Notes: a model not told the origin generated them from the sequence alone. Counted from the first letter of the stretch, positions 163 through 30,400 are shown. The stretch is DNA of 32,144 nt from an uncultured Candidatus Saccharibacteria bacterium (GCA_964354925.1 CAYHBU010000001.1:1-32144), one strand, 5' to 3'. A program made the numbers and translations.

Positions 163-1239
163 CTAACCCTCAAAAACTATCACTGGCGGGAGTTTTAGTG
201 TTTTTACCGGCGGTTTAGGATCATAGCCAATCCTAAAAATCATCAATACCGTTTTTTGATCTTCATTAAATACATCGTTTATTTCTTTATCTGCTTGCTT
301 GATAAGCTCTACCTGATTTGGCGAAAACCCGCTAGAATCACCGGCCAATATTCTCCTGGCAAGATAAGGTATGCCCGTCATAGGCTGCAAACTTAGCCCA
401 AGTTTTGTGATTGTCAGCCAAATTCTTTGCAATAACCTGCCTCCTCTCAAATAGGCTTCGTCTGTTTCTCCATCCACAAGTATCGCGCAAAGCGCAGATG
501 AAGAGATACAGGACTCGGCGCTTTGTTTTTGAATTTTCTTGGCTAATCCGATTTTATTTACCACGTTTACAAATAGCCAATTCCCAAATATTTTCATTAT
601 GGGCAACATAAATGACGGCATGTCGGGGAATTTTGTTTTGATATATAATCCCTTTCTTTTTTCGGCATTTTCTTTTTCTGACCACAAAATACTAGAAAAT
701 ACGATGCCGTGAATCATCTTATTTTCAAAAATTAATCTCTCATGAAGACCAAGTGCCCAGGCCACCTTTTCTATTTCTTTAGAATCTTCAATTAATTTAA
801 TTTTACCGCCCCCAGCTACCGCTTGCTGAGTTTTTAAAATTTCTTCTTTGTGTTCTGATTTGAGCGGTGTTTTTTGATATATTCTACGATTAGTAGCGCG
901 ATTAAGTATATAGTTTAACAATGAATCTTCTTTTGGCTCTGCTTTGTCCAAAATCACGATAGCAACGATATCAGACTGACTCTTATCCGGGAAAATTTCT
1001 ATATTTGCATGATAGCCATATTTAAGAGCAATGATCGAGATGTTTTCCAGCAACGCTCCATGAGCGATATAAGAGCCTTTTTGATCGAAATTATAAGGCG
1101 TGATGTCTCCATCAGAAACATTACGGATGTAGATTTTATTTCCCCTAACTACAAATTTCCATGGCTGAGAATTATTCCCGGAAGGAGCATTTACCGCATG
1201 CTCAAGAATATTTTTTATTGTATCTTTCATATTTTCCAT
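163..1239 (-). CDS. tandem-domain nitroreductase-family (FMN) oxidoreductase
   Basis: 358-aa ORF. N-terminal HAVNAPSGNNSQPWKF matches the nitroreductase FMN-site motif, and a second nitroreductase-like half follows. The start overlaps the stop of the upstream E1-like ORF by 13 nt. Confidence 0.8.
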   Translation of the reverse strand: MENMKDTIKNILEHAVNAPSGNNSQPWKFVVRGNKIYIRNVSDGDITPYNFDQKGSYIAHGALLENISIIALKYGYHANIEIFPDKSQSDIVAIVILDKAEPKEDSLLNYILNRATNRRIYQKTPLKSEHKEEILKTQQAVAGGGKIKLIEDSKEIEKVAWALGLHERLIFENKMIHGIVFSSILWSEKENAEKRKGLYIKTKFPDMPSFMLPIMKIFGNWLFVNVVNKIGLAKKIQKQSAESCISSSALCAILVDGETDEAYLRGGRLLQRIWLTITKLGLSLQPMTGIPYLARRILAGDSSGFSPNQVELIKQADKEINDVFNEDQKTVLMIFRIGYDPKPPVKTLKLPPVIVFEG

Positions 1240-2243
1240 ATATTTAAATCAATCATATATCTTCCTGATTTTATTTTCTGACCGGATGCAATTTTAGAAA
1301 TTGCGAGAGCAACGGCGGAACTCGAAGCCAAAGAAGTGATGCCAAGCTGCGGCACGCCGGCCAAAGTATTGCCAACTTCTTTCAAGGACAACATCAACTT
1401 TTCACTGAAAAGATCTTTGTCTAATATTTTTCTTGTAGCTTCGATCCATTTTGGAGAATGTGATACAAGATTTTTGAAATCATTGGGGTCGAATTCGCCC
1501 AATAACCCATGAAAGATCTCTCTTTTGGGCTCAATATCAAATCGTTCTATGTCTATTATCGTTTTTTCTCCTAGATTTGTGGCCATTAAAACCGGTATTT
1601 TATGCTTTCTGGCCAAGATACGCAGCTGAATCTTGATCTCCAAATCATCCAGCTCATCTATCAAAATATCTAATTTCGGCGCACCTTTGATAAATTTATC
1701 CAAATTCTTTAAGTCAACGCCATTTGTCCATGGATCAATTTTTATAAATGGGTTTAATTCGTAAGCTTTTTTCAACGCCGCGATTGTTTTATTCTCCCCT
1801 ATTTCGCTAATTGAATAAAAAAGGCGATTTAAATTCGTAAGCTCTATCGTATCCGGATCCGCTATTCTCAAAAATTTACCTCCTCCGGAAATCAATAGCG
1901 GCCACAATATATTTGATCCAATTGATAAACCAATAATACCTATTTTTGCGTTGTAAAAATTCTTTTGCTCCTCTTTTGTTATTAAATTTTTATTGCGCGC
2001 TGATCTGACTTCCAGAAAAAGATTCTCCGGCAGAGTATATACAACATTATTATTCCATGGAAAATAAACATATACTCCTTTTATTTTTTGATATTTTTTT
2101 AAAAATTCTTCCAGCTTTTCTTTGTTATTTTTAAATTTTGGATATCGAATCTTGAATAATTCTTTTAATTCAGGATTGAAGGCATCGATAAAATTTGCGC
2201 CTTTGGGGATTTTATTTTTATCTTTGAAGATAATTGGTTTCAT
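1227..2243 (-). CDS. E1/ThiF/MoeB-like adenylyltransferase
   Basis: 338-aa ORF. Gly-rich loop KIGIIGLSIGSNIL plus RIADPDTIELTNLNRL are typical of the E1-like adenylation domain. It starts 6 nt after the PaaK-like ORF. Confidence 0.8.
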   Translation of the reverse strand: MKPIIFKDKNKIPKGANFIDAFNPELKELFKIRYPKFKNNKEKLEEFLKKYQKIKGVYVYFPWNNNVVYTLPENLFLEVRSARNKNLITKEEQKNFYNAKIGIIGLSIGSNILWPLLISGGGKFLRIADPDTIELTNLNRLFYSISEIGENKTIAALKKAYELNPFIKIDPWTNGVDLKNLDKFIKGAPKLDILIDELDDLEIKIQLRILARKHKIPVLMATNLGEKTIIDIERFDIEPKREIFHGLLGEFDPNDFKNLVSHSPKWIEATRKILDKDLFSEKLMLSLKEVGNTLAGVPQLGITSLASSSAVALAISKIASGQKIKSGRYMIDLNIWKI

Positions 2244-2249
2244 AATTTT

Positions 2250-3764
2250 TTAGTTATTTTTTACCCATTTTTGTTTTATACCGGGCTTGAAATGCTCCGG
2301 ATGTTCAAATGGCCAAAAAACCAGTTTGGGCGCAGCCCTTTCTTTTAAATGATTATGCAATTCATTAAACTCAGAACTTTTAATGCAAAGCGTTGAAACA
2401 ATTAGATCCGTCAAAGCTTTTTTAAATTGATCATTTATAATTTTATCATTTCTTAACTCAATATTTATTTCCAAATATTGATCTTGATTTGCATCAAATT
2501 TTGTCGAAAGAGAAAATTTGCCCGTCAAATAATCAGCAGCAACTCCACTTATCAATGCATCTCTTATTATCTCCGGGAAAATTTGCAAACCATAAAGCGT
2601 AGTCGACATATCACTCCTTTCGTAAATATACACGAAAGGTAATTCATTAACGTATCCATTTATTCCTGCTTTATTTATCTCATCTTTAATATCGCATCCA
2701 TACTGCTTGAGATTAGAGACGGCATCCTTAAAACTAAAAACTCCGCCACGATCTCCGATGGCATATCTAATAAGTGGTATCGCATTATCACCAGTCAAAA
2801 ACACTTCTCCATCGGGAGCCTCAAAACTGACAAATGACGGATTAAATTGTGCTAGAGTCGGTGTTTTATTGATATTAGAAAATAATTTGTTAAATAAATT
2901 TTTATTGCCCATTGATAATCTTTTTATCAGCGTGGCTCCGCCTGTTTCCCATGCCATCGCGCCAATATCAGCGCTTCCATAAATATGTATTATGTCTAGA
3001 TATGGGCTTCTGATCCTAGCCTTTTGAACAATATAATCCCTAAAATTTTCCGTAAAAACTTCAGCCGCAAAAACCAATCTTAAATTTATTTTACTTAAAT
3101 TAATGTCTCTCCCTGAAGCCTCATCAATTAAATCTTTTATAAATGGAGGATATCCGACTAAAATAGTCTGAGCAAATTTTGGACTTAGTTTCTTTAAAGC
3201 CTTAAATATCTCTTCTTTATTTATGCCGGGGGTCAATATTGAAACAGAATAATCACTTCTTCGACTAGCCATCTCAAAAGCTTCGTACGATATCAATCCT
3301 CCAATCCACACGCCCATCCCAAAGCATACAATAACCAAAATTGGCTCGTTATTAACAATAGAGCTTTGCTCCAAAAATAATTCCTGCAATATAGAGTATT
3401 GCCAATCTATTTTTTCCAATCTGGGAAAATAAAAAGGCTCGCCAGTCGAACCAGAAGTAGATGTGAACACTAAAGGTTTTTTTAGCGAACCATCCCAACA
3501 AAGCTGCTCCAATGGATATTGCCGTAAATAATTTTTCTTATCCATTGGAGGCACATTTTGAAAATCCTGCCAGGTTTTTATTTTTTCCGCCTGAATTTTA
3601 TTTTTCTGCAAAAAATCTTTATAAGCTGGTACATTTTTTGCCGCTTTTTTAAATAAAGCTAGTGACGATTTTTCTCGTTCTTTCATCCAAAAATCGCTAT
3701 TTTTTTCTTTTATAGCTTTTAATATTTTTTCTGTCCTTGATTTTTCGTTATTAAAAAATTCCAT
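2250..3764 (-). CDS. adenylate-forming ligase, phenylacetate-CoA ligase / coenzyme F390 synthetase (PaaK/CapK) family
   Basis: 504-aa ORF with the AMP-binding loop FTSTSGSTGEPFYFP. First gene of a three-gene minus-strand operon. Confidence 0.75.
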   Translation of the reverse strand: MEFFNNEKSRTEKILKAIKEKNSDFWMKEREKSSLALFKKAAKNVPAYKDFLQKNKIQAEKIKTWQDFQNVPPMDKKNYLRQYPLEQLCWDGSLKKPLVFTSTSGSTGEPFYFPRLEKIDWQYSILQELFLEQSSIVNNEPILVIVCFGMGVWIGGLISYEAFEMASRRSDYSVSILTPGINKEEIFKALKKLSPKFAQTILVGYPPFIKDLIDEASGRDINLSKINLRLVFAAEVFTENFRDYIVQKARIRSPYLDIIHIYGSADIGAMAWETGGATLIKRLSMGNKNLFNKLFSNINKTPTLAQFNPSFVSFEAPDGEVFLTGDNAIPLIRYAIGDRGGVFSFKDAVSNLKQYGCDIKDEINKAGINGYVNELPFVYIYERSDMSTTLYGLQIFPEIIRDALISGVAADYLTGKFSLSTKFDANQDQYLEINIELRNDKIINDQFKKALTDLIVSTLCIKSSEFNELHNHLKERAAPKLVFWPFEHPEHFKPGIKQKWVKNN

Positions 3765-3862
3765 TTTTTATCAAATTTCATACATACTATATCAGAAAAT
3801 CATTGAAATAGAAAGATAATTCTGTAATGGTCGAACAATGCCTATTTTGATATAATTTAACC

Positions 3863-4612
3863 GTGAAAAACACCAGATTCCCTAAAAAATTTTTAAAATA
3901 TACCCACAAGCCACACCGCTCCACTAAAAATAAGGGTCGGAAGAATCCGGCTGTTTTAATATTGCACGAAATCACTGGCATCACTGAACATACAAAAAGA
4001 GTGGCCCAAAAATTTGCTGACGCGGGTTATATAGCTATTACTCCCAATCTTTTCGAAGATAAAAGAATACAGAAAATATTCAAAGAAATGCCTCGTCTGT
4101 TCGAAAAAGCACAAAAAGAAGGTAAGGATCTTACTGAATTAAATAAGAAGATTAACGAAAAACTATATAAAATACTAAATAGTAAGAAATTTATCGACAC
4201 TACAATCAATAAATTAAATCAATGGATAGACTCGCTTAAATCACTAGACACAGTAGATGCCGATAATATATCAGTCATTGGATTTTCTTTTGGTGGCTGG
4301 TATGCATTTAAACTAATACAACTCAGAAACGACATACGCAAAGCGGTTATTTTTTATGGATTTTATGATGTCACCGAAGAAATGATAAAAGAAGTCAAAC
4401 GCCCAATGCTTGGATTTTATGGAGAACTTGAAAGCAGTATAAATGAAATTCAACGGATTAAGGAATTGGCTAAAAAGTATCAAAAACCAATAAAGATTTA
4501 TATGTGCAAACAGGCAAAACATTCTTTTTTTGATGATACAAACCCAAGAAGATACAATAAAGGAGCTTCGGATTTTGCGTGGAAAAAAACATTGGGATTT
4601 CTAAATAATTAA
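3863..4612 (+). CDS. dienelactone hydrolase family alpha/beta hydrolase
   Basis: AVLILHEITGITEHTKRVAQKFADAGYIAITPNLF and the nucleophile elbow GFSFGG fit the DLH fold. The GTG start lies only 6 nt after a TATAAT box (3851-3856), so the start is uncertain or the mRNA is leaderless. Confidence 0.65.
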   Translation: MKNTRFPKKFLKYTHKPHRSTKNKGRKNPAVLILHEITGITEHTKRVAQKFADAGYIAITPNLFEDKRIQKIFKEMPRLFEKAQKEGKDLTELNKKINEKLYKILNSKKFIDTTINKLNQWIDSLKSLDTVDADNISVIGFSFGGWYAFKLIQLRNDIRKAVIFYGFYDVTEEMIKEVKRPMLGFYGELESSINEIQRIKELAKKYQKPIKIYMCKQAKHSFFDDTNPRRYNKGASDFAWKKTLGFLNN

Positions 4613-4661: not shown

Positions 4662-5069
4662 ATGACCAACAAACCAATTAAAAAGGCTGGGGCTATAATT
4701 TTAAGTAGCAATGATAAACATAAAATTGCTCTACTTTATCGCGGGAAACATAATGACTGGTCATTTCCAAAAGGTCATATCGAAGACGGAGAGGATTCAA
4801 TAAATGCAATGATAAGAGAAGTAAAAGAAGAAACAGGATTATCAATAAAAATTTTATGTGAGCTACCGGAACAAAATTATCTTCACCCAAGTGGGAATAC
4901 CGTTTCAACAAAAATGTTTCTAGTACAATCCGAAAATGATGATCTTTTAAAATTGGAACATGAAACAGATGATATTAAATGGGTGCCAATAAACGAAGTG
5001 ATCTCGGTCTTGAGTTATAATAATTTAAAGGATTATTTTAAAAAAGTTTACCATATTATTAATAAATAA
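4662..5069 (+). CDS. Nudix hydrolase
   Basis: Nudix box GHIEDGEDSINAMIREVKEETGL (G-x5-E-x7-REUxEExGU). Confidence 0.85.
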   Translation: MTNKPIKKAGAIILSSNDKHKIALLYRGKHNDWSFPKGHIEDGEDSINAMIREVKEETGLSIKILCELPEQNYLHPSGNTVSTKMFLVQSENDDLLKLEHETDDIKWVPINEVISVLSYNNLKDYFKKVYHIINK

Positions 5070-6728: not shown

Positions 6729-7688
6729 ATGGAAATAATCATAGAATATCCAAAATTAGTCAACCTCTACTCGTTCATATCCAATCTTAGCCAATGGAAT
6801 GATTTGGTCTGCATACCTGAGCGAAAGAAGGAATGGATCAAAAGAACTGGAAAATTAAACAAAAAAGATGTTGATGCCCTGAATCGCTTCAGTAGATTAT
6901 TTCAAGAATCCGAATTAAATATCGAAAATATTTTTCTATATGATAACCCGCAATATATCTGGCGGATATTATCAAAAAAAATTGGGTGCGAAAAAACAAA
7001 GGAATTGCGTGACATATTTGCTCTCTTTAAAGAAAGATTCAATGTTATATGGAGCAAGGACATAAACAAGATAAAAAGAATAGAACAAGAATTTTCCAAG
7101 CAAAAAAATCTCTTAAACAAAAATCTAAATATCATTAAAAATCTTTGCGGCATTCCCCAGAATAGGCTAAGCACCGAGATAAGAGTGAGACTGATACTAA
7201 GCAGCAACATCAAAGAAGAAAGCCAAGGATTTGCATATAAAAATATCATTATTCTTGAGTGTTCTGGTTGGCCGATGAAGAAAATAAATTATCTTATCAA
7301 CAACATTTTACTACACGAAAGTTTTCATATCTTATTTAAGCAGAATAAAAAATTATTCAAAAGATTTCAAGGTTTAGTTAATAAAAATAGACAAATATTA
7401 GACAAACATTTTTTAAAAACTTGGGGAGCAGAAATCGTATTCGAAGAAGCATTGGTAAGCAGCTTTATACCAGAAGGATATCTGACAGAAAAAATATCCG
7501 GTCAAAATACAATAAACGAAGCAAAGAGCAAACTGAGGAGTAAAAAGATAACAGGACTAGAAAGATTAAGATATCAATCGGCCATCGACAATTATGATAT
7601 TGCAAAAGAATATGTAGAGGGATGGAAGGTATTGGATACACGATTATTGAATCACGTTATAAGTAAACTATATTCAAATATAAAATAA
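6729..7688 (+). CDS. hypothetical protein with HExxH-like motif
   Basis: 319-aa ORF in which I recognise no family. It contains LLHESFHILF (HExxH). Convergent with the rSAM gene, sharing its terminator. Confidence 0.45.
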   Translation: MEIIIEYPKLVNLYSFISNLSQWNDLVCIPERKKEWIKRTGKLNKKDVDALNRFSRLFQESELNIENIFLYDNPQYIWRILSKKIGCEKTKELRDIFALFKERFNVIWSKDINKIKRIEQEFSKQKNLLNKNLNIIKNLCGIPQNRLSTEIRVRLILSSNIKEESQGFAYKNIIILECSGWPMKKINYLINNILLHESFHILFKQNKKLFKRFQGLVNKNRQILDKHFLKTWGAEIVFEEALVSSFIPEGYLTEKISGQNTINEAKSKLRSKKITGLERLRYQSAIDNYDIAKEYVEGWKVLDTRLLNHVISKLYSNIK

Positions 7689-7712
7689 AAAGAGGCGTTA
7701 TTTCGCCTCTTT
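7689..7712. terminator. bidirectional terminator hairpin
   Basis: AAAGAGGCG-ttattt-CGCCTCTTT begins immediately after the stop at 7686-7688. It overlaps the last codons of the minus-strand rSAM gene. Confidence 0.6.
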
Positions 7713-8789
7713 GGTATAATCCTGAATCACAGAATTAAATCTGCTAAATATCTTTTTCAATGATATGCAAAACATGTTTCGCGAACCATTATCCAATACA
7801 TTCGGCCAATAATCTTGTGGGCATCCTCCACGGCAAACATTAAACCATTCGCAGGAAATACATTTCAAATTCAAAACCTTCATTCTATCTTTAAACCGAA
7901 TAAAATTATCGACTAATGGAACCGCGTCCAAACCATTCTTAATATTGCCAAAACTTAAAGATTCTATCTGTGGCAACGAATCACAAGCATAAATCGATCC
8001 ATCGGGATAAACAGTAAGGTATTTATAACATTCGCCGGAAAACATGCATTCCCTATTATCTCCACCCATCATTGTATTGACTATGCTTTCAATTTCCCTA
8101 ATTTCTATACTTGGATCATCTAGTTTTAGTAATTCATTAAAAATACCTACCAAAAAATCTGCGTAACTTTCAGGGTCGACAGAAAATGGGAGTAAATTAC
8201 CGTCATCGTTACGTCCTTGAACTTGAAGAAATTTTACTTTCTTTATTCCTTTAGAAACAAAGAATTTAAATATTTCTTTCGGGTAATCACAGTTTATAGA
8301 GCTAACACAACAAATAATACTAGGCTCGATATTGAATTTACGAAGCGTATTTATCGCACGCATAACATTATTAAAGCTACCTCTTTCTTCGCTTATTATT
8401 CTCGTCTTATCATGAAAAAACTTTGGGCCATCTAAACTTGTACCGACACTGAAATTATTTTCAGAAAAAAATCTCGCCCACTCGTCATCAATCAATAAAC
8501 CATTAGTTTGTATCGAATTAAATACATCACATCCTTTATTGACCCAAATCGACTGATATTCAATCGCCTTACGATAAAAATCCATACCAGCCAACATTGG
8601 CTCTCCGCCATGCCACACAAACTCTACTCGATCACTCATTTTACAAAATTCATTTATCAATGCTTCTAATGTGACATCAGACATCAACATACTGTCATGG
8701 GAATCAGCTTTCTTTTTCTTGAAATAACAATAACCGCAATCGATATTACATCTACCTCCGATTGGTTTTATTATAGGAGTAAAATTCAT
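7698..8789 (-). CDS. radical SAM/SPASM-domain enzyme, anaerobic sulfatase-maturase (anSME)-like peptide maturase
   Basis: CNIDCGYC (CxxxCxxC) cluster, WHGGEPML, IQTNG, and the C-terminal SPASM motif CISCEWFNVCRGGC (CxxCx5CxxxC). I prefer the ATG at 8789, preceded by GAGGTG, over the GTG at 8801 in the track. Confidence 0.85.
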   Translation of the reverse strand: MNFTPIIKPIGGRCNIDCGYCYFKKKKADSHDSMLMSDVTLEALINEFCKMSDRVEFVWHGGEPMLAGMDFYRKAIEYQSIWVNKGCDVFNSIQTNGLLIDDEWARFFSENNFSVGTSLDGPKFFHDKTRIISEERGSFNNVMRAINTLRKFNIEPSIICCVSSINCDYPKEIFKFFVSKGIKKVKFLQVQGRNDDGNLLPFSVDPESYADFLVGIFNELLKLDDPSIEIREIESIVNTMMGGDNRECMFSGECYKYLTVYPDGSIYACDSLPQIESLSFGNIKNGLDAVPLVDNFIRFKDRMKVLNLKCISCEWFNVCRGGCPQDYWPNVLDNGSRNMFCISLKKIFSRFNSVIQDYTKEAK

Positions 8790-8834
8790 TGCACACCTCA
8801 CTTTATTTTGTTGTTGTGTTTTGAAAAGAGGGGG

Positions 8835-9197: not shown

Positions 9198-9653
9198 ATG
9201 AAAAAATTACGTCTTTTAGCAAGGGTCGTAACCTACGATAAGAATATTAATAAAATCCTTCTTGTAAAAAATAAAGGGATGAGTTTTTGGTACGCTCCTG
9301 GTGGCGGTTGGGAATATGAAAATGAAAATATTTTAGAATGCGCAAAACGAGAAGTTCACGAAGAAACCGGCTTGCATGTGGACATCAAAAAAATGCTTTA
9401 CGTACAAGAATTTCATGATTCAGCTGAATCAATTTTATTTGAAACATTTTGGCTTGCTGAACTTAGCCACGAACAATCTTTAAATGAAAATCATATCGAT
9501 CTCGATCCGAATGGAAATGTTGAAACTGCTCAGTGGTTCAACAAAGAAGAATTGCAAGATCTCAAAGTTTTTCCAAAACGATTAAAAAATACCTTTTGGG
9601 ATAATATCGAATTAGTTATTAATGGAGAAGACCAATTTATTGGCGTAGACTAG
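9198..9653 (+). CDS. Nudix hydrolase (paralog A)
   Basis: Nudix box GGGWEYENENILECAKREVHEETGL. 141/151 aa are identical to ORF 21338-21793 by manual alignment. Confidence 0.85.
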   Translation: MKKLRLLARVVTYDKNINKILLVKNKGMSFWYAPGGGWEYENENILECAKREVHEETGLHVDIKKMLYVQEFHDSAESILFETFWLAELSHEQSLNENHIDLDPNGNVETAQWFNKEELQDLKVFPKRLKNTFWDNIELVINGEDQFIGVD

Positions 9654-10222: not shown

Positions 10223-11096
10223 GTATCTTTATTAATACCCTCTTAAGGCAATCAACGTATCGCTCCCTACTATTAACCGGCAAAGACACCACCTTCCTAT
10301 CAATATCATTGCATCTTACAGATTTCTTAGACCTCCTTTCAATTGCTTCAAACAATCTTATTGTTTGATTGATGCAGAATTCTGATAGTGGCCCCTGCCA
10401 TTCCTTGGGTATTGATGCCCATTCTCCAGGATTACCAAAAGGCAATATGTATGGCGCGCCAATATTTTTTTTACCAACGACAGATCTGCCAGACAGAGGC
10501 ACGCCAGGATAAAAATCGCGCTCGCAAACCTCATCCACCACCGACTCATAGACACGAACGCAATTCACTTTATATCCCGCAGAATTCAATCTGCTAACCC
10601 CCTTCTCTATCCCGATACCCGCACATACGGCCACAACCCTTATTCCCAATTGAGACATCTTCTTGATTACTGTCTCAATGGCGTCGCCAGAAAAAATCAC
10701 ATCATCAACCAAGACAACTTCTTTCCCTGTCAATTCTTTTCGTAGTCTCCGTAGTTGAACATGGACACGAGGAGTCCCATGACGTTCCCTTGTTCCAGCA
10801 TCACTATTATTCATATCAACAAATCGAGTAATTTCAAAACTGTATTTTGACAAATAATACGCCCTATCTAGCGAAACTGGAATTAGCCCACTCTCTCCCA
10901 CGAAAACCTCAATACCTGCAACCATTTCTTGTTCTGGAATCATTTCAAAATTCGAAAATATTCTCTTAAAAAAAGTTGAGAAATCGCTTCTCAGAGATTG
11001 AAAAAAAACTTCTTCCGGCAACACAAAGCTTTTCTTTTCCGCCCAATGTCGCAACAACAAATGGATGTCTTCCGAAACAATGTATGGTCTTTTCAT
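10206..11096 (-). CDS. phosphoribosyltransferase-domain protein
   Basis: 296 aa with the PRPP-binding loop KEVVLVDDVIFSGDAIETV. I do not recognise the N- and C-terminal extensions. Strong SD (GAGGAG) 8 nt upstream of the ATG. Confidence 0.7.
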   Translation of the reverse strand: MKRPYIVSEDIHLLLRHWAEKKSFVLPEEVFFQSLRSDFSTFFKRIFSNFEMIPEQEMVAGIEVFVGESGLIPVSLDRAYYLSKYSFEITRFVDMNNSDAGTRERHGTPRVHVQLRRLRKELTGKEVVLVDDVIFSGDAIETVIKKMSQLGIRVVAVCAGIGIEKGVSRLNSAGYKVNCVRVYESVVDEVCERDFYPGVPLSGRSVVGKKNIGAPYILPFGNPGEWASIPKEWQGPLSEFCINQTIRLFEAIERRSKKSVRCNDIDRKVVSLPVNSRERYVDCLKRVLIKIQKPIT

Positions 11097-11145
11097 TTAA
11101 CACTCTCCTCGTATTTTATTGTTTTAAAAGATCAATGTCTTAACC

Positions 11146-11688
11146 CTATTTTCTTGCAAGACTAATAGCTTTTTTAACTGCCTTCCTGGAATCGTCAGTA
11201 GCAACAATCTTCAATCTCTTTCTTTGATCTATGTATGTTCCAGCAAGTTTATCGGACCAACCGCCAGTTTTAACAATCGCAACTATCGGAATATTTGATT
11301 GATATGCGATGGCAGCCTCCGTCAAAGTACCCGAGCCACCGGAAATAATAATTACAGCGTCGCAGGAATTTACCAAAACGAACTCTCTTCCACCGCCCCG
11401 CTCGAGACCCGTGCAAATTATTACATCCGTGTCACCATTTTTATCCCAAATGTCCTTGCTTTTTCCATAGGTAACGCCAATAGTGAGACCACCGGCACTC
11501 TTGGCTCCTCGCGAGGCGGCAGTGGACAAAGAATCATAATCTTTTTCAGCTCCATACACTGTAATATTGCCACTCTCCGCTATGAATCTCCCAACATCAA
11601 ATGCGATCTGTTCTATTTTTTTCGAATAATTAAGATCAGCTGCCGAACCCATTACTCCAATTTGAATTTTTCGAGATATTTTTATCAT
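11146..11688 (-). CDS. TIGR00725 / LOG-like (SLOG superfamily) protein
   Basis: IGVMGSA N-terminus and the LOG-type motif ISGGSGTLTEAAIA (PGGxGTxxE-like). I prefer the ATG at 11688, given the promoter at 11703-11731. Confidence 0.7.
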   Translation of the reverse strand: MIKISRKIQIGVMGSAADLNYSKKIEQIAFDVGRFIAESGNITVYGAEKDYDSLSTAASRGAKSAGGLTIGVTYGKSKDIWDKNGDTDVIICTGLERGGGREFVLVNSCDAVIIISGGSGTLTEAAIAYQSNIPIVAIVKTGGWSDKLAGTYIDQRKRLKIVATDDSRKAVKKAISLARK

Positions 11689-11702
11689 AATTATTATCAA
11701 AA

Positions 11703-11731
11703 AGTGTAATAAAAAAATATATGGCTGTCAA
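11703..11731 (-). promoter_or_regulatory. sigma70-like promoter of LOG-like/PRTase operon
   Basis: Minus strand TTGACA (11731-11726), 17-nt spacer, TACACT (11708-11703). The leader to the ATG at 11688 is very short. Confidence 0.5.
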
Positions 11732-11837
11732 TCATACATAACTTCATGCACACCTAAGCCCGTGTATAATATTTCGTAGATTAAACACTACATATGACAA
11801 CCTAATTGCAACACGATAAACGCGACAACCATAAAAT

Positions 11838-11872
11838 AAAAACCGAAAATCCAATTGGATTTTCGGTTTTTT
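11838..11872. terminator. terminator downstream of hisS
   Basis: Perfect palindrome AAAAACCGAAAATCCAA/TTGGATTTTCGGTTTTT, 6 nt beyond the hisS stop. Confidence 0.75.
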
Positions 11873-11877
11873 AGCTA

Positions 11878-13214
11878 CTATCCTTTTCTAATCAATTCCA
11901 TAACCTGCGACAAAGACAAACCATCAGAATCCTTGTTATTGCCTACATCTTTCAAGCTCACCTCTTTACCATCTGATGATGGAAAGACGATAAACTTTAT
12001 ATCTTTGCTGATTGCATATTTTATCTGCTCGCTTACCGATTTTTGACCAAGATAGACTTCTACGTCAACACCCTGATCTCTTAAGAAACCGGCTATACTA
12101 AACGAATAATCCGAGCAACCATCCTTAACGGCAACCAAGACTTCTGCGGTAGACTTCTTCCCATCCAAGAGGTTTAGCGCTTGAAGTGCCACTATCAATC
12201 GATCTAATCCGATTGAAGCGCCCACTCCTGGCAATTCTTTGTCGGTATAGAGGCTGGACAGATTATCAAACCGTCCCCCAGAACAAATACTTCCTATCCC
12301 TGGCAGATCATTCAGAATCGTTTCATAGACCGTACCAGTATAATAATCCAGTCCTCTGGCAATAGAAAGATCTATTTTGATATTTTCCTCTGGGATACCA
12401 AGCGACCTGGACTTTCCCAATATTTCTCTCAAGTTTGCTATGCCAATTTCTGCAAGTGGAACACCCGAGAACTCCTTAGCCAACCAATCAAGAACTTCAT
12501 CATTGCTACCATTCAAACCGACAAAGTATATAATCTTATTGATTGCAACCTCATCTTGGCCAATGACAGTCTCCAATTCTCTTTTCACTTCATCGACACC
12601 AACTTTATCTTTCTTATCAATTACTCTAAATATATGCACTGTCTTATCTTCACATTGAGCTGCTTCATCAACCCATTAAGAATCATTCTATTATTGATTC
12701 TTATTGTGAAAGAATCCAAGCCCAATGCCGTCAGTGCAGAAAATATAACCTGGACAACTTCCGCATCAGCAAGATTAGATCTAGTCCCTATCACATCAAA
12801 ATCACATTGATAGAATTCTCTATATCTGCCTCGCTGAGTATTTTCACCTCTCCAAACCGGAGCAATATGGTATCTTTTAAAGGGAAATGAAAGCTCATTG
12901 AAGTGTTGGGCCACAAATCGCGCCAAGGGCACAGTCAAGTCAAACCTAAGCGCAACATCCCTACCTCCATTATCTGTAAATCTGAATAACTGCTTATCAG
13001 TTTCTGTGCCGCCCTTGCCCAATAAAATCTCAGAATATTCAAGCGCTGGCGTATCAATAGGGACATAACCGAAAGATCTATAAACTCTTTCAATAACTTC
13101 CATCATACGCTTCCTGGGAATCATTACTTCTGGCAAAAAATCCCTGAAACCCTTTAATGTTCTTGGCTCGATAATTACCTTCTTTTTTACTTCATTTTGA
13201 TTGTCGTTTCCCAT
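11878..13214 (-). pseudogene. hisS: histidine--tRNA ligase, reading frame broken by a 1-nt deletion
   Basis: N-terminal ORF (12621-13232) has class II motifs (RGFRDFLP-like, FRFDLTVPLAR, YHIAPVWRGENTQRGRYREFYQCDFD). C-terminal ORF (11878-12639) has GLDYYTG, CSGGRFD, GASIGLDRL and an anticodon-binding domain. The frames join if one G is added at about 12651 (AATGTG-GAAGAT gives ..QLNVEDKTVHIF..). The likely start is the ATG at 13214, after GGAGG. Confidence 0.8.
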
Positions 13215-13221
13215 TTTTTTC

Positions 13222-13273
13222 TTGACCTCCACTATTTTATAGTTTATTATACGACGATACTACAAGTTATCAA
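13222..13273. promoter_or_regulatory. overlapping divergent promoters for hisG (+) and hisS (-)
   Basis: Plus strand: TTGACC (13222-13227), 17 nt, TATTAT (13245-13250). Minus strand: TTGATA (13273-13268), 16 nt, TATAAT (13251-13246). The two -10 boxes overlap. Confidence 0.5.
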
Positions 13274-14484: not shown

Positions 14485-14986
14485 TTATCTGAACGGGCAT
14501 TTACCCTCATTATTTGTCAAGGTACCATTATGATATATATAGCCACACCTTAACAAATCAAATGTGGTTGTCAATGGTGTATATGTACGGTTAACATCAA
14601 AATACAACAAACATATTTCGCGGAACCATTTCCTAATCCCCAAAACTATCCTTAGCGGAAATTTTAATGTTTTTACTGGTGGTTTTGGATAACGGTCAAT
14701 CCTAAAAATCATGAGTACTATTTTTTTCCGTCTTTCTTATTCATAACACACCTTTAAAGTATGGGAAATTTAAATCTATTAAATATCTTCCTGATTGTAT
14801 GTTTTGACCAGATGCGATCTTTGAAATGGCAAGAGCGGTGATCGAGCTTGAAACCAATGATGTCATGCCAAGCTGGGGCACGCCAGCCAGAGTATCTCCC
14901 ACCTCCTTCAATGATAGCATCATTTTTTCACTAAAAAGATTTTTATCTAATATTTTTCTGGTGGCCTCGATCCATTTCGGGCTCAT
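14485..14986 (-). pseudogene. decayed partial copy of the E1-like / nitroreductase gene pair
   Basis: 14741-14986 encodes SPKWIEATRKILDK...ISKIASGQ, which is about 85% identical to the last ~73 aa of ORF 1227-2243. 14638-14712 encodes MIFRIDRYPKPPVKTLKFP, which corresponds to the last ~25 aa of ORF 163-1239. About 1 kb of the nitroreductase interior is missing. Confidence 0.8.
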
Positions 14987-18513: not shown

Positions 18514-19953
18514 TCAATCAATTTTTATATTAATAACCGGATCACTATTATTTCTTCTTTTAATAGCCGATTGATGTATTGCAGAAAGAAGATATACGCT
18601 TTTCTGATGACTAATAAAGTCAGAGCGCGAATCATTTCCATTGTTAACAGAATCAATAAAATCATTAATGCAATTAATGCGGGCATCTTCCTGATGACCC
18701 CGTGAATATCCGCCCATAATATTTGTCCAAAGATCTTGAATATTGTATTTTTCGTGTGGGCACCAATCACTAAACATACGAGAATTACGAAATACATGAA
18801 TATCAAAATGATACTCCCCTCCAAAATCATACAAATTACCATCATTTTGCGGATTTATCTCTTCAGACTGGAACGATGCCAACAAAATAGATTGAAATGG
18901 ACCCTGCTCTATAAAATAACTCTCTTGGCGAACTCTTCCATTTCCTTTGTACAAGTCCCTATTTGCTACAGTGGCCCAATTTCTTTGACTAAAACCATTA
19001 TGAATAAGATTTATGCTCCCCAAACATATGATTCGATCACCCCTTTTAAAAACCACATTACTAAAAGCATCAATTTCTCCAAAATCTTTGCAAATATTAT
19101 TAAAGTCATCCTCGCTATATTTATTAAAAACGTCAAAGTCATTAAATAATTTTCTATAATCTCTAAAATTTAACTGAGCTAAAAAATCGCAGGGCCTTAA
19201 AAAGTTAGTAAATACATCTGCATTATCTATTTTTTTATCACCTCTGGATGTTGAATCGATAAACCAATTAACCATATCAAAACTATGATATCCCGAGTGA
19301 CAACATTTGCCATACCCTTGATTGTATGGATGATAGTTTTGATCAATAATTTCGGATGGGAAACGCCACTGTCCATCGCTATGAGATACCTGAATTGATG
19401 TTATCGGACAATTTGTTCGGTTAAACACTTCTTCTATTTTATTTTTTGCAAAGATATACGCAGGATGAAATCTTCTTTGAGACACCACGGAAAATGCTTT
19501 AATTAAACCAGAGTCTTTTTTATTTATGTATATCTTTTTCAACTCTTCGTAATCACGCTGAATCTTTAGAGCCTTTTCAAGATCAGTAGAAATATCTGCT
19601 TCTGCTGTTATCGGCTTATCTATTAAAATATTTAAATTATGTTCAAGACACCATTTCGTATACTTATAATGCATTAATGGCTCAGTAGAAATTATAACGC
19701 TATCGATTTTATGTTCATTTACCATACGAAGAAGCAAATCGTCCAATTCTTTGTTTATAATATCTTGCTGCAAATCGTTAGTAAAAAAAATATCAAGCAT
19801 GTAATCATTTTTTGCCAAATACGATTCTATAATATTTTTTTGCTCAAAAATATCTAAACCACACACTAAACTACAACCCCTAACTCCACGCATAAAATAG
19901 GGAATATAAATCCTTCTAGCATGATATCCCATTCCTATTATCATTATTCTCAT
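18514..19953 (-). CDS. putative NAD(P)-dependent oxidoreductase (Gfo/Idh/MocA-like N-terminus) with a large uncharacterised C-terminal region
   Basis: 479 aa. The N-terminal MRIMIIGMGYHARRIY dinucleotide-fold start and the EPLM segment resemble Gfo/Idh/MocA. I do not recognise the remainder. Its start overlaps the Nudix stop by 4 nt (ATGA). Confidence 0.45.
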   Translation of the reverse strand: MRIMIIGMGYHARRIYIPYFMRGVRGCSLVCGLDIFEQKNIIESYLAKNDYMLDIFFTNDLQQDIINKELDDLLLRMVNEHKIDSVIISTEPLMHYKYTKWCLEHNLNILIDKPITAEADISTDLEKALKIQRDYEELKKIYINKKDSGLIKAFSVVSQRRFHPAYIFAKNKIEEVFNRTNCPITSIQVSHSDGQWRFPSEIIDQNYHPYNQGYGKCCHSGYHSFDMVNWFIDSTSRGDKKIDNADVFTNFLRPCDFLAQLNFRDYRKLFNDFDVFNKYSEDDFNNICKDFGEIDAFSNVVFKRGDRIICLGSINLIHNGFSQRNWATVANRDLYKGNGRVRQESYFIEQGPFQSILLASFQSEEINPQNDGNLYDFGGEYHFDIHVFRNSRMFSDWCPHEKYNIQDLWTNIMGGYSRGHQEDARINCINDFIDSVNNGNDSRSDFISHQKSVYLLSAIHQSAIKRRNNSDPVINIKID

Positions 19954-20393
19954 GGCTCGATAGGAGAAATAAATCGACTCTTAAATTCCATAAAAGCCTT
20001 TTTATTATTATCTTTTTCTAGCGTCTTCTGGGCTTCATCGTAAGAACACCATCTGTAATCGTCGTGCTCATTGCCCAATTCAATATCAATAGTATCGGGC
20101 AATTCAACCCCGAAAACATATTCGCTTATCTGAGTATCTTTATTTTTCACCCATGTAAACTGATAAAACATATCAGTTATGGAGATAATCTGATTCTTAT
20201 TTATATTTATCTCTTCCTCAAACTCCCTATAAATACATTCTGTGAGTGATTCATTTGACTCTAGCGTTCCCGTGATCGGCTGCCAAAATCCTCCGTCTTC
20301 CGGAATCCTTTTTACTAGTAAAAATTTTATTTCGCCGTCTTTCCTACAAAATGGTATCCCTTCAAATTTAATTGGTAATTTAAAAATATTCAT
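19950..20393 (-). CDS. Nudix hydrolase, NudB (dihydroneopterin triphosphate pyrophosphatase)-like
   Basis: FWQPITGTLESNESLTECIYREFEEEINI: a Nudix box with the FWQxxTG signature seen in NudB-type enzymes. Confidence 0.75.
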   Translation of the reverse strand: MNIFKLPIKFEGIPFCRKDGEIKFLLVKRIPEDGGFWQPITGTLESNESLTECIYREFEEEININKNQIISITDMFYQFTWVKNKDTQISEYVFGVELPDTIDIELGNEHDDYRWCSYDEAQKTLEKDNNKKAFMEFKSRFISPIEP

Positions 20394-28702: not shown

Positions 28703-30400
28703 TTACGCTCTCCCCAAAACCCTGACAATAGAACAGTATCTTTTTACTTCTTTAAGAGCCTCTGTCAAATCAGCGCTTTCGGGCAAGCTCTCGACTTCAA
28801 GAAAAAAATAATACCCCCACCCATCGGCATCGGATCTTCTTGAGTAAAGTTTAGATAAGCTCAATCTTTTATTTGCAAAACAATCCAAAATATCACGCAA
28901 CACTCCACAACGGTCATAAACCGCCAAGATAACAATGGTCTTATCAGCCTTCAACACCTTGCTTATGTCAGGCACTTCTTTTTTTGCTAAAACATAAAAT
29001 TGCGTTGTATTTATTTTTTTATCTTCTATATTTTCAACCAATAATTTTAAACCGTATTTTTTGGCAGCTGCACTGCTTGCTATAAATGCCACCTCTTCGT
29101 CCTCTGTAGATAAAATGGCTTTTACGGAGCTCGATTCCGCCTCCAATTTTGCATTGGGGAAATTTTTGCTTAGCCAATTACGAGATTGCGCGATTGGCTG
29201 AGCATGAGATTTTATAACTTTTATCTTTGACAAATCGTTAGTCCTGCCCAATAAACACAAATGAATCGGGAGGTTGTACGATCCCACTATTCTCAATGGA
29301 TATTTGATTAAATTGTCGAGTGTTTCTTGCACCAATCCCTCTGTTGAATTCTCTATCGGCACAACACCAAAATCAGCATCTCGATTGTCTATTATTTCAA
29401 AAACCTTAGCGATTGTCGGAGCTACTATCCAGGAGGAATCCCTTGAAAAAATATTTATTGCTGCTTGATTAGAAAAAGTCCCCTCCGGCCCCAAGTAAGC
29501 AACCTTGCTGCCACTCTTTAAAAAATTTATTTTTCCGGAAAACTTTTTTATCTCAATCGGCTGTTTATCCATTAGAGAAATAATCTCAACGGATTTTGCT
29601 TGGGCAACGGGAATAAAATTCTCCATAAAAGAAGATGCCTCCTTAAAATCTTGAATAAATTTTTTCTTATTCTTCTTTTCAATATAAGAAATAAATTTTT
29701 GGGTTTCTTTTAAGTATTGTCTGGCTATTTTCATAAAAGCAGGATTTTCCATCTCTAGGTCTGCATAAAGCTCCGGGCTTCCTCCTAAAACGCGTCCAAC
29801 CAACATACTTTGAAGCCTAAATACTGGCGTTGAGTAAACATTGGATATATCGAACTTTTGATCCTGTATTGTTTTTGCAAATATTATATTAATAAAATGG
29901 GTCAAAGCCTGCACAACAGCCATTTGACTATCGTGATTTTTGGGATCAGTAAATACTACCCTGGCCCCATTTTCTTCAAAAATCTTTTGTAAAAATCTTA
30001 CCCAACGATTTTCTCTGCCCTGACAGAATACAACAATTTGCGACTTCAAGCTGGGAACCAACGGACCGAATAACGGATGAATACCTAAAACTCCACATCT
30101 ACTTTTAGATTTCATCATTTCTTTCATCGACATTTCCTTTACTGATGTAAAATCACAAAGCAACGCGTCTGGACGCACAAAATCTCGAATTTCTTTTATG
30201 ATTTTTTTGGTCTCAGAAATGGGGACGGAAACGATTATTATATCCGATTTTTCCGTTAATTCTTTTGCTGTTAGCTCAGTTTTTCTGCCCGATATCAAAA
30301 CATTGAACCCCTTATCTTCAAAAAAACCCTTAAACCAATTGCCAAATCTTCCAGTTCCGCCGATTATTCCTATGACCGGTTTTTGATTTTTCATTATCAT
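28703..30400 (-). CDS. bifunctional prephenate dehydrogenase / prephenate dehydratase with C-terminal ACT domain
   Basis: N-terminus: IGIIGGTGRFG Rossmann fold and GIHPLFGP (TyrA). C-terminus: VAYLGPEGTFSNQAA and TTQFYVL (PheA PDT domain), then an ACT-like region (GVLRDIL...YSRRS). Confidence 0.85.
   Translation of the reverse strand: MIMKNQKPVIGIIGGTGRFGNWFKGFFEDKGFNVLISGRKTELTAKELTEKSDIIIVSVPISETKKIIKEIRDFVRPDALLCDFTSVKEMSMKEMMKSKSRCGVLGIHPLFGPLVPSLKSQIVVFCQGRENRWVRFLQKIFEENGARVVFTDPKNHDSQMAVVQALTHFINIIFAKTIQDQKFDISNVYSTPVFRLQSMLVGRVLGGSPELYADLEMENPAFMKIARQYLKETQKFISYIEKKNKKKFIQDFKEASSFMENFIPVAQAKSVEIISLMDKQPIEIKKFSGKINFLKSGSKVAYLGPEGTFSNQAAINIFSRDSSWIVAPTIAKVFEIIDNRDADFGVVPIENSTEGLVQETLDNLIKYPLRIVGSYNLPIHLCLLGRTNDLSKIKVIKSHAQPIAQSRNWLSKNFPNAKLEAESSSVKAILSTEDEEVAFIASSAAAKKYGLKLLVENIEDKKINTTQFYVLAKKEVPDISKVLKADKTIVILAVYDRCGVLRDILDCFANKRLSLSKLYSRRSDADGWGYYFFLEVESLPESADLTEALKEVKRYCSIVRVLGRA

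Follow-up and report, generated by a model that had tools for sequence, protein, structure and literature searches.

In this study, we analyzed a 32,144-nucleotide stretch of DNA from an uncultured Candidatus Saccharibacteria bacterium (CAYHBU010000001.1:1-32144; hereafter, the window), in which three adjacent minus-strand genes encode a PaaK-fold adenylate-forming ligase, a ThiF-like adenylating enzyme dependent on adenosine triphosphate (ATP), and a single-chain flavin-dependent oxidase (FDO) with a nitroreductase fold. The comparisons described below led us to consider it on balance probable that this trio constitutes a pathway of the oxazolone (azlactone) or N-acyl-dehydroamino-acid type, in which the ligase acts as the amide synthetase. 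The ThiF/FDO oxazolone module is already known, and the new elements are the third gene, namely a divergent PaaK-fold ligase of an undescribed family that occupies the position usually held by an N-acyl amino acid synthase (NAS), and the linkage of the cluster to a two-component system across the Patescibacteria superphylum. Within the limits of the literature searched, no report on this cluster in Patescibacteria was found.

The ThiF, FDO, and ligase proteins

The positions and lengths of the three open reading frames (ORFs) are given in Table 1. Sequence inspection placed the stop codon of the ligase gene (TAA, 2252-2250) six nucleotides before the ThiF ATG at 2243, and the ThiF gene, ending with TGA at 1229-1227, overlaps the FDO gene by 13 nucleotides when the latter begins at the ATG at 1239; a second in-frame FDO ATG at 1230 would, if used, form a classic ATGA four-nucleotide overlap. 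On the upstream side, a short intergenic region separates the ligase gene from a divergent dienelactone-hydrolase gene. A consensus promoter scan gave no match in this intergenic region, and matches region-wide were no commoner than in shuffled sequences, with the counts from promoter and terminator scans of the region being the same as in shuffles. On the other side, the FDO gene is followed up to the window end by 162 non-coding bases, AT-rich and closed in all three frames, and since the window stops there the downstream context of the trio is not visible. The window has a G+C content of 35%, and its nearest relatives are Candidatus Wolfebacteria and other Patescibacteria, ThiF and FDO being 83% and 82% identical, respectively, to proteins of one Wolfebacteria metagenome-assembled genome (MAG). 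An exact look-up of the window FDO among contigs returned no match. Farther along the same strand lies a decayed remnant of a second ThiF-FDO copy with the FDO body deleted, in which 213 nucleotides are 79% identical to the ThiF 3' end (1242-1454) and 96 nucleotides are 79% identical to the FDO 3' end (162-257); its two ORFs translate to near-copies of the respective C-termini.

The ThiF protein was recognized by Pfam PF00899 (E 3e-22) and by NF005901, the profile of the Rv1355c family (E 3e-85, 287 bits, model positions 36-336 of 722), whereas other ThiF-type models reached at most 68 bits and the ThiF/MoeB equivalogs scored 37-68 bits against cut-offs of 152-450. The whole-protein cut-off of NF005901 (476 bits) lies above the score of ThiF because a half-length protein cannot reach it; the score is split here between ThiF (287 bits) and FDO (179 bits). 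Residues 17-334 were aligned with an Rv1355c-family fusion protein encoded on a Mycolicibacterium plasmid at 36% identity (E 2e-59), and this alignment takes in the N- and C-terminal regions that are specific to the family and missing from generic ThiF proteins. Among 65 Patescibacteria homologues, 39 positions were at least 93% conserved, of which 35 were identical in the actinobacterial fusion, including the adenylation-site residues D129, D131, N137, N139, R140, K152, and D199 (D202 of the fusion). D199 most likely corresponds to D217 of TrzS from M. smegmatis, the adenylation Asp replaced in the D217A variant (PMC12856293). Further residues common to the fusion were D20, W58, W63, R80, R83, N84, D231-E-R-x-D236, and P298-Q299. 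Possessing D199 and no cysteine whatsoever, the protein can therefore adenylate but cannot perform E1 thioester or ThiF/MoeB Zn-CxxC chemistry. Judging from the profile, the window ThiF is a member of the oxazolone-synthetase ThiF family, equivalent to the N-terminal half of Rv1355c, and homology shows it to be a predicted ATP-dependent carboxylate-activating enzyme.

FDO matched NF011424 (E 5e-68, positions 327-669 of 679), the C-terminal half of NF005901 (E 2e-52, positions 373-712 of 722), and NF047509, the Acg family of flavin mononucleotide (FMN) oxidoreductases (E 6e-39). Its AlphaFold 2 (AF2) model, with a mean predicted local distance difference test score (pLDDT) of 93, was by far closest among solved structures to the Acg homologue 2YMV (Foldseek E 1.9e-13, template modeling (TM) scores 0.69/0.75), which is the closest solved structure of TrzS as well (PMC12856293), whereas classical dimeric nitroreductases gave E values of at least 5e-5 and covered half of the protein. 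The motif A18-P-S-x-x-N23-x-Q-P-W27 (APSxxNxQPW), R114, and R118 were invariant and common to the actinobacterial fusion. By homology, FDO is shown to be a putative FMN enzyme of the desaturase subgroup.

Both proteins thus have counterparts among characterized enzymes, because TyzB/TyzC, OxzB, and TrzS are all oxazolone-forming ThiF and FDO enzymes. Rv1355c was identified in December 2025 as TrzS, an N-acyl-tryptazolone (oxazolone) synthetase (PMC12856293), and TrzS, TyzB/TyzC, and OxzB were demonstrated experimentally to cyclize and desaturate N-acyl amino acids to oxazolones, the ThiF part cyclizing the N-acyl amino acid at the expense of ATP and the FDO part desaturating it (PMC12856293, PMC10404671, bioRxiv 10.1101/2020.06.11.147165). 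TyzB (ThiF) and TyzC (FDO) of M. tuberculosis are separate proteins, which together with the acyltransferase TyzA yield C12:0-tyrazolone (PMC10404671), while OxzB of Pseudoalteromonas rubra is a ThiF-nitroreductase fusion acting on the N-acyl tyrosine furnished by the acyltransferase OxzA (bioRxiv 10.1101/2020.06.11.147165); OxzB was described in a 2025 review as the sole ThiF-family enzyme then known to act on a small molecule. Compared with the TrzAS system of M. tuberculosis and M. smegmatis, the window ThiF and FDO match the two halves of TrzS, with the adenylation Asp conserved and the same closest solved structure; in contrast, they are two separate proteins rather than a fusion, they are accompanied by a PaaK-fold ligase where TrzAS has the TrzA-type acyl-coenzyme A (acyl-CoA) N-acyltransferase, and their host belongs to the Patescibacteria, not to the mycolic-acid actinobacteria. 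With TyzACB (Rv2336/Rv2337c/Rv2338c), the window shares a ThiF and a single-chain FDO encoded by separate adjacent genes and the same three-enzyme logic, the third TyzACB gene being the one that makes the N-acyl amino acid. TyzA, however, has an acyltransferase fold of the acyl-homoserine lactone synthase/FeeM-like type and uses lauroyl-CoA, whereas the third enzyme of the window is an unrelated ATP-dependent ligase of the ANL/PaaK fold. A ThiF and nitroreductase-fold module coupled to an amide-forming enzyme is likewise seen in OxzAB and in the NAS/ThiF/nitroreductase clusters of Planctomycetota, Pseudomonadota, and Deltaproteobacteria (loci L090 and L091 in our survey), whose substrates are small molecules, not peptides, and in which the nearest named FDO relatives outside Patescibacteria sit; these clusters carry FeeM/NasY/OxzA synthases and often lipid exporters, none of which occurs in the window cluster. 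As far as profiles and alignments can tell, the ThiF/FDO pair of the window is a split form of the Rv1355c/TrzS family.

The ligase had no Pfam match, AMP-binding included, and its profile matches were weak (PaaK/FlxY/F390-synthetase, E 1e-10). Against the PaaK equivalog TIGR02155 it scored 40.3 bits where the cut-off is 646.3, with residues 38-266 alone being aligned. Its AF2 model (pLDDT 87) displayed the PaaK two-domain architecture and matched PaaK1, PaaK2, and BT_0428 (2y27/2y4o/4rvo) with Foldseek E values of about 1e-20 and TM scores of 0.77-0.80; the CoA-independent NatL2 and ClxA were further matches, and a 2-hydroxyisobutyryl-CoA ligase was also among the best. An alignment of 32 homologues revealed invariant T103-S-G-S-T-G-x-P110, Y262-G, G337-D338, E382-R-x-D385, and K497, which probably represent ANL motifs A3-A10. 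NatL2 and ClxA, from benzoxazole pathways, are PaaK-fold ligases that make esters or amides without CoA (PMC7204872, PMC12519233). The window ligase has the two-domain fold (Foldseek E 1e-20 to 1e-14) and the ANL core motif set in common with PaaK, NatL2, and ClxA, whereas it is only 14-18% identical to them, is about 75 residues longer, lacks a paa or benzoxazole gene context, lies far under the PaaK equivalog cut-off, and forms a family of its own. More than 2000 homologues were found at 55-80% identity, all named ones belonging to Patescibacteria, and an exhaustive search of 50%-identity representatives gave 510 clusters at E ≤ 1e-30.

An earlier note, made from this DNA sequence alone, had described the three minus-strand genes with their 6-nucleotide gap and 13-nucleotide overlap, and both the ORF listing and the sequence agree with it. 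Its domain assignments were also sound, the tandem nitroreductase being an Acg-type FDO; the profile searches it proposed recovered ThiF as PF00899 and the nitroreductase as a member of the Acg family, while for the ligase they yielded no Pfam domain and weak PaaK profiles, so that the PaaK fold became evident from the AF2 model and Foldseek. The note had rightly pointed to Rv1355c-type fusions, the two proteins being halves of NF005901, although the function that it called unknown is now known to be that of TrzS. Its statement that the trio could not be assigned to a described system is true of the ligase and no longer of the other two genes.

Gene clusters in related genomes

A scan of species-representative genomes found the ligase in 234 genomes, and the best 80 loci, which span Parcubacteria/Paceibacterota, Microgenomates, Magasanikbacteria, and others, were taken for comparison; the survey of recurrent neighbors took in 85 loci. 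With profiles built from these related loci, ThiF was detected near the ligase in all 38 loci having at least 8 kb available downstream, and FDO in 35 of them (36 with tblastn). A HisKA_7TM histidine kinase was encoded in 30 of the 32 loci with at least 9 kb downstream, almost always as the last gene of the cluster (L001 11241-12914). Within 8 kb upstream, a Leu/Phe/Trp-type amino-acid dehydrogenase was present in 25 of 52 loci and a receiver-only response regulator in 26 of 52, one or two such regulators often preceding the cluster (L004 4960-5768). The best curated match of the dehydrogenase was the tryptophan dehydrogenase ScyB (328 bits, under the cut-off). The recurrence of this trio in dozens of independent genomes puts its linkage far beyond chance, and the co-occurrence test proposed in the earlier note turned out strongly positive. 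The usual neighbors of the trio, the seven-transmembrane (7TM) histidine kinase and the amino-acid dehydrogenase, differ from those of TrzAS, which are cyclic di-GMP genes.

Among the 28 loci flanked by at least 8 kb in either direction, ThiF, FDO, kinase, and dehydrogenase invariably shared the strand of the ligase, as did the response regulator in 15 of 16 cases. The commonest order was dehydrogenase-ligase-ThiF-FDO-kinase, with median gaps of -4 to 12 nucleotides. Two cluster types, ligase-ThiF-FDO and ligase-FDO-ThiF, were distinguished, FDO being much more divergent in the latter; in most related loci ThiF and FDO are adjacent, at a median gap of 9 nucleotides in the ThiF-FDO order and 4 in the FDO-ThiF order. 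Identity to the window proteins across Patescibacteria was 50-63% for the ligase, 31-46% for ThiF, and 24-49% for FDO. Four types of natural fusion were found among the listed matches of the 50%-identity representative search, namely dehydrogenase-ligase (847 amino acids, four MAG accessions), ligase-ThiF (863 amino acids), ThiF-ligase (880 amino acids), and dehydrogenase-ligase-ThiF (1242 amino acids, two accessions). Ligase relatives of 30-36% identity were still inside the same cluster (L092 and L093), and in L094 (62% G+C) the genes for ThiF, ligase, and FDO are followed by a MacB/FtsX-type exporter that replaces the kinase. Some loci are interrupted: in L003, ThiF and FDO have a GmrSD-type restriction gene inserted between them (10608-12419), and inserts of about 1-5 kb separate trio genes in several others (L011, L042, L029, and L059). 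Two loci, L009 and L070, come from the same MAG, so that some related genomes hold two full clusters.

Outside Patescibacteria, the relatives of FDO were 23-36% identical to it, and the closest named ones are deltaproteobacterial and adjoin ThiF. In the surroundings of one of these ThiF/FDO pairs (L091) are an MMPL transporter and two N-acyl amino acid synthases of the FeeM type, which is the canonical cluster type. No acyltransferase of the FeeM/NAS/OxzA/TyzA/TrzA type was found by Pfam in the window or among the recurrent neighbors of the 85 loci, whole genomes not having been searched, and the sole window GNAT is a RimJ/L-type gene 18 kb from the trio. A tblastn search with two unverified plasmid neighbor genes, one for a hypothetical protein encoded next to an Rv1355c-family gene and the other for a Streptomyces GNAT, neither of them a confirmed OxzA, TyzA, or TrzA, also gave no match; it is a weak test because the first query does not resemble true TrzA.

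These neighborhoods bear on the idea that the trio modifies a peptide or protein, either as an azole-forming pathway for ribosomally synthesized and post-translationally modified peptides (RiPPs), in which an E1-like protein works with an McbC-type dehydrogenase, or through activation of a ubiquitin-like protein or sulfur carrier. E1-like and nitroreductase-fold proteins do co-occur in azole RiPP clusters, and the ThiF core matches E1 proteins and defense-system E1-E2 models weakly; a PADLOC search for anti-phage systems gave generic E1-core matches of at most 30 bits for ThiF and nothing for the ligase or FDO. However, no YcaO was encoded by the window ORFs scanned with Pfam (every ORF of at least 200 amino acids and several shorter ones) or in the gene lists of the related loci, the narrow gaps leave no space for a precursor gene, and no conserved small ORF or GG-terminated protein emerged among the recurrent neighbors at a cut-off of at least 70 amino acids, shorter ORFs not having been clustered. 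Moreover, ThiF lacks cysteine and scores 287 bits with the Rv1355c profile as against 30-68 with others. We accordingly rejected an azole RiPP or thiazole/oxazole-modified microcin pathway, since neither YcaO nor room for a precursor was found and ThiF belongs to the small-molecule Rv1355c type, as well as ubiquitin-like or sulfur-carrier activation, given the cysteine-free ThiF, its low scores, and the lack of a ThiS, MoaD, or ubiquitin-like partner gene among the recurrent neighbors; taken together, this family of explanations is the least probable that we considered. The absence of YcaO and of a visible precursor had already been remarked in the earlier note, whose guess of a small-molecule or peptide pathway, drawn from two carboxylate-activating enzymes and a flavin dehydrogenase, holds for the small molecule and finds no support for the peptide and its azole RiPP lead.

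The dehydrogenase directly upstream in about half of the loci, along with the resemblance of the ligase to phenylacetate-CoA ligase, could also suggest a route for the catabolism or salvage of aromatic or branched-chain amino acids, in which the dehydrogenase gives a 2-oxo acid that is turned into an acid and then a CoA thioester, ThiF and FDO being loosely linked. Such a route is nevertheless highly improbable, because paa genes were found neither in the window nor in the related loci and beta-oxidation genes were lacking in the cluster, ThiF is present in all 38 loci and sometimes fused to the ligase, and the ligase reaches 40 bits with the PaaK equivalog, for which the cut-off is 646.

Predicted pathway and competing explanations

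In the pathway that we propose, the ligase would adenylate a carboxylic acid, probably amino-acid-derived such as an aryl or branched-chain 2-oxo acid or an arylacetate, and couple it to the amino group of an amino acid, yielding an N-acyl amino acid with no acyltransferase involved, thereby doing the job of the acyl-CoA-dependent N-acyl amino acid synthases (OxzA/TyzA/TrzA/FeeM type) of other phyla. By homology to TrzS, TyzB, and OxzB, ThiF would then adenylate the free alpha-carboxylate, whereupon ring closure by the amide oxygen gives the 5(4H)-oxazolone, and the FMN-dependent FDO would, like TyzC and the FDO domain of TrzS, remove two hydrogens across C-alpha/C-beta to leave a conjugated oxazolone. 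The Leu/Phe/Trp-type dehydrogenase of the relatives may serve precursor supply, with the 2-oxo acid or the amine partner stemming from such an amino acid. The assignment of the ligase as an amide synthetase is drawn from its fixed position in the operon, its fusions to dehydrogenase and ThiF, the lack of an acyltransferase in the conserved neighborhood, and the precedent of NatL2 and ClxA. The window itself also encodes a 565-residue protein in which prephenate dehydrogenase and prephenate dehydratase are fused with an ACT domain. This protein, which is unusual in a reduced genome, would make 4-hydroxyphenylpyruvate and phenylpyruvate and might supply the ligase pathway with aromatic 2-oxo acids.

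Several observations weigh against the proposed pathway. FDO was missing within 10 kb in two loci in which ThiF is present (L034 and L048), FDO is just 23% identical to the actinobacterial FDO domain, and the FMN-site residues R540 and Q651 of M. smegmatis TrzS were left unmapped on the window FDO. Known FDOs use O2, and many Patescibacteria live in anoxic groundwater. In the 32-kb window, no dehydrogenase, histidine kinase, or response regulator was detected, the window copy consisting of the three core genes alone, while its nearest relative (L088) has a response regulator before the trio and a kinase, split into two ORFs, after the trio and four small genes. As for the ligase, we infer its acid, its acceptor, and its CoA independence alike, its closest solved structures are true CoA ligases (PaaK1/2), its sequence appears compatible with thioester formation, and an acyltransferase could be encoded elsewhere in the trio genomes.

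The last of these points lead to a foremost alternative, according to which the ligase is an ordinary acyl- or aryl-CoA ligase and an unlinked N-acyl amino acid synthase makes the amide that ThiF and FDO convert into an oxazolone. The best structural matches of the ligase, with BT_0428 and the 2-hydroxyisobutyryl-CoA ligase besides PaaK1/2, are in its favor, as is the fact that every characterized oxazolone pathway uses acyl-CoA and an acyltransferase. On the other hand, the conserved neighbors in the 85 loci include no acyltransferase although the other components are tightly packed, natural ligase fusions with ThiF and with the dehydrogenase suggest a direct hand-over of intermediates, and CoA-free PaaK-fold ligases exist, as NatL2 and ClxA attest. 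We therefore judged this alternative unlikely, if the strongest of those considered.

It is next in likelihood, and again improbable, that the three enzymes are coupled and yet the product is not an oxazolone, ThiF using a different nucleophile to give another heterocycle, an amide, or an ester, and FDO performing another redox step. In Planctomycetota and Pseudomonadota, an NAS/ThiF/nitroreductase trio has been proposed to make N-acyl dehydrotyrosines, and no oxazolone was detected (PMC12479983); furthermore, the low identity of FDO to its relatives outside Patescibacteria would be in keeping with a different reaction. An alpha/beta hydrolase, moreover, is found inside the L092 cluster and beside the window trio. 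Nonetheless, ThiF retains the conserved residues of the Rv1355c/TrzS cyclase domain along its whole length, and the failure to detect oxazolones elsewhere is weak evidence, since oxazolones are readily hydrolyzed during extraction (PMC12856293). Hydrolases of this kind could open an oxazolone, whose ring is lactone-like. Besides the divergent dienelactone-hydrolase-family gene adjoining the ligase gene of the window, they were noted at L086 912-1604 and L092 9535-10422, the former a dienelactone hydrolase about 3 kb from an actinobacterial Rv1355c-family gene and the latter the alpha/beta hydrolase within its cluster. The window gene was rejected as a cluster member and is treated as not conserved, because none of the other 85 loci had a counterpart at E ≤ 1e-8.

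Returning to the oxazolone-type pathway, its product is likely tied to signaling, because the related operons carry a 7TM histidine kinase and often a response regulator; the kinase may sense the product or control its synthesis. In the literature searched, HisKA_7TM occurred in just two papers, and their titles and abstracts mention no ligand. The exporter of L094 would fit a released molecule. Pairs of an autoinducer synthase and a membrane-embedded sensor kinase are exemplified by CqsA/CqsS and LuxM/LuxN of Vibrio. As in these systems, genes for the synthesis of a small hydrophobic molecule would be co-transcribed with a polytopic histidine kinase (HisKA_7TM, 30/32 loci), whereas the synthases are without homology and the kinase is outside the visible window. 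By extension, the trio might be the synthase half of a Patescibacteria-wide signaling system, whose acyltransferase-free, CoA-independent product of the oxazolone (or related N-acyl dehydroamino-acid) type, made from amino-acid-derived acids, would be sensed by the co-transcribed 7TM kinase and relayed via the receiver-only response regulator; we regard this complete scheme as doubtful, albeit worth serious consideration.

Other genes of the window and significance of the cluster

Beyond the trio, the window contains several further features (Table 1). A radical SAM/SPASM gene, whose product resembles anaerobic sulfatase maturase (306 bits, cut-off 349) as well as DynA-type peptide maturases, is flanked by a gene for a 319-residue protein without a family match; as a peptide maturase of the trio it was rejected, having no recurrence in the related loci. 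The histidyl-tRNA synthetase gene is broken into two ORFs that overlap in different frames, which represents either a frameshift, a sequencing error, or a pseudogene. Three NUDIX hydrolase genes occur within the 32 kb, and in L001 a NUDIX gene lies two genes upstream of the ligase.

Table 1. Coordinates of the trio and of other features of the window.
Feature	Position	Strand	Remarks
PaaK-fold adenylate-forming ligase	2250..3764	-	504 amino acids; first gene of trio; AF2 fold and motifs
ThiF-like ATP-dependent adenylating enzyme, predicted cyclase	1227..2243	-	338 amino acids; PF00899, NF005901
FDO, single-chain two-lobed nitroreductase, predicted desaturase	163..1239	-	358 amino acids; NF011424, NF005901, NF047509, 2YMV
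Intergenic region, presumed trio promoter region	3765..3862	.	98 nucleotides; AT-rich; assigned by position only
Dienelactone-hydrolase-family gene	3863-4612	+	divergent from ligase gene
NUDIX hydrolase gene	4662-5069
Protein without family match	6729-7688		319 amino acids
Radical SAM/SPASM	7698-8801	-
NUDIX hydrolase gene	9198-9653
Histidyl-tRNA synthetase, C-terminal part	11878-12639	-	with anticodon domain
Histidyl-tRNA synthetase, N-terminal part	12621-13232	-	catalytic part
Decayed remnant of second ThiF-FDO copy	14632-14726 and 14768-14980	-	FDO body deleted
ORFs of the remnant	14741..14986 and 14485..14712		near-copies of ThiF and FDO C-termini
NUDIX hydrolase gene	19950-20393
Prephenate dehydrogenase-prephenate dehydratase-ACT fusion	28703-30400	-	565 amino acids

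Oxazolone natural products came to light only in 2021-2025, together with the ThiF/nitroreductase synthetases that make them. The present results indicate that the two-enzyme oxazolone module is conserved across Patescibacteria, whose genomes of about 1 Mb are generally held to be poor in specialized metabolism, and that it is coupled there to a non-homologous ligase, which probably removes the need for an acyl-CoA pool. If the ligase only makes acyl-CoA for an unlinked acyltransferase, the finding would amount to a new phylogenetic occurrence of a known pathway. With its more than 500 clusters at 50% identity, the ligase family may also yield ATP-dependent amide-bond biocatalysts. Furthermore, the nearly invariable association with a 7TM kinase, and often with a response regulator, provides the testable hypothesis that oxazolones are signals. 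If this is true, ultra-small episymbiotic bacteria would possess, in the product of the cluster, a host-symbiont or quorum-sensing-like signal, and oxazolones would gain the physiological role that is still missing in mycobacteria.

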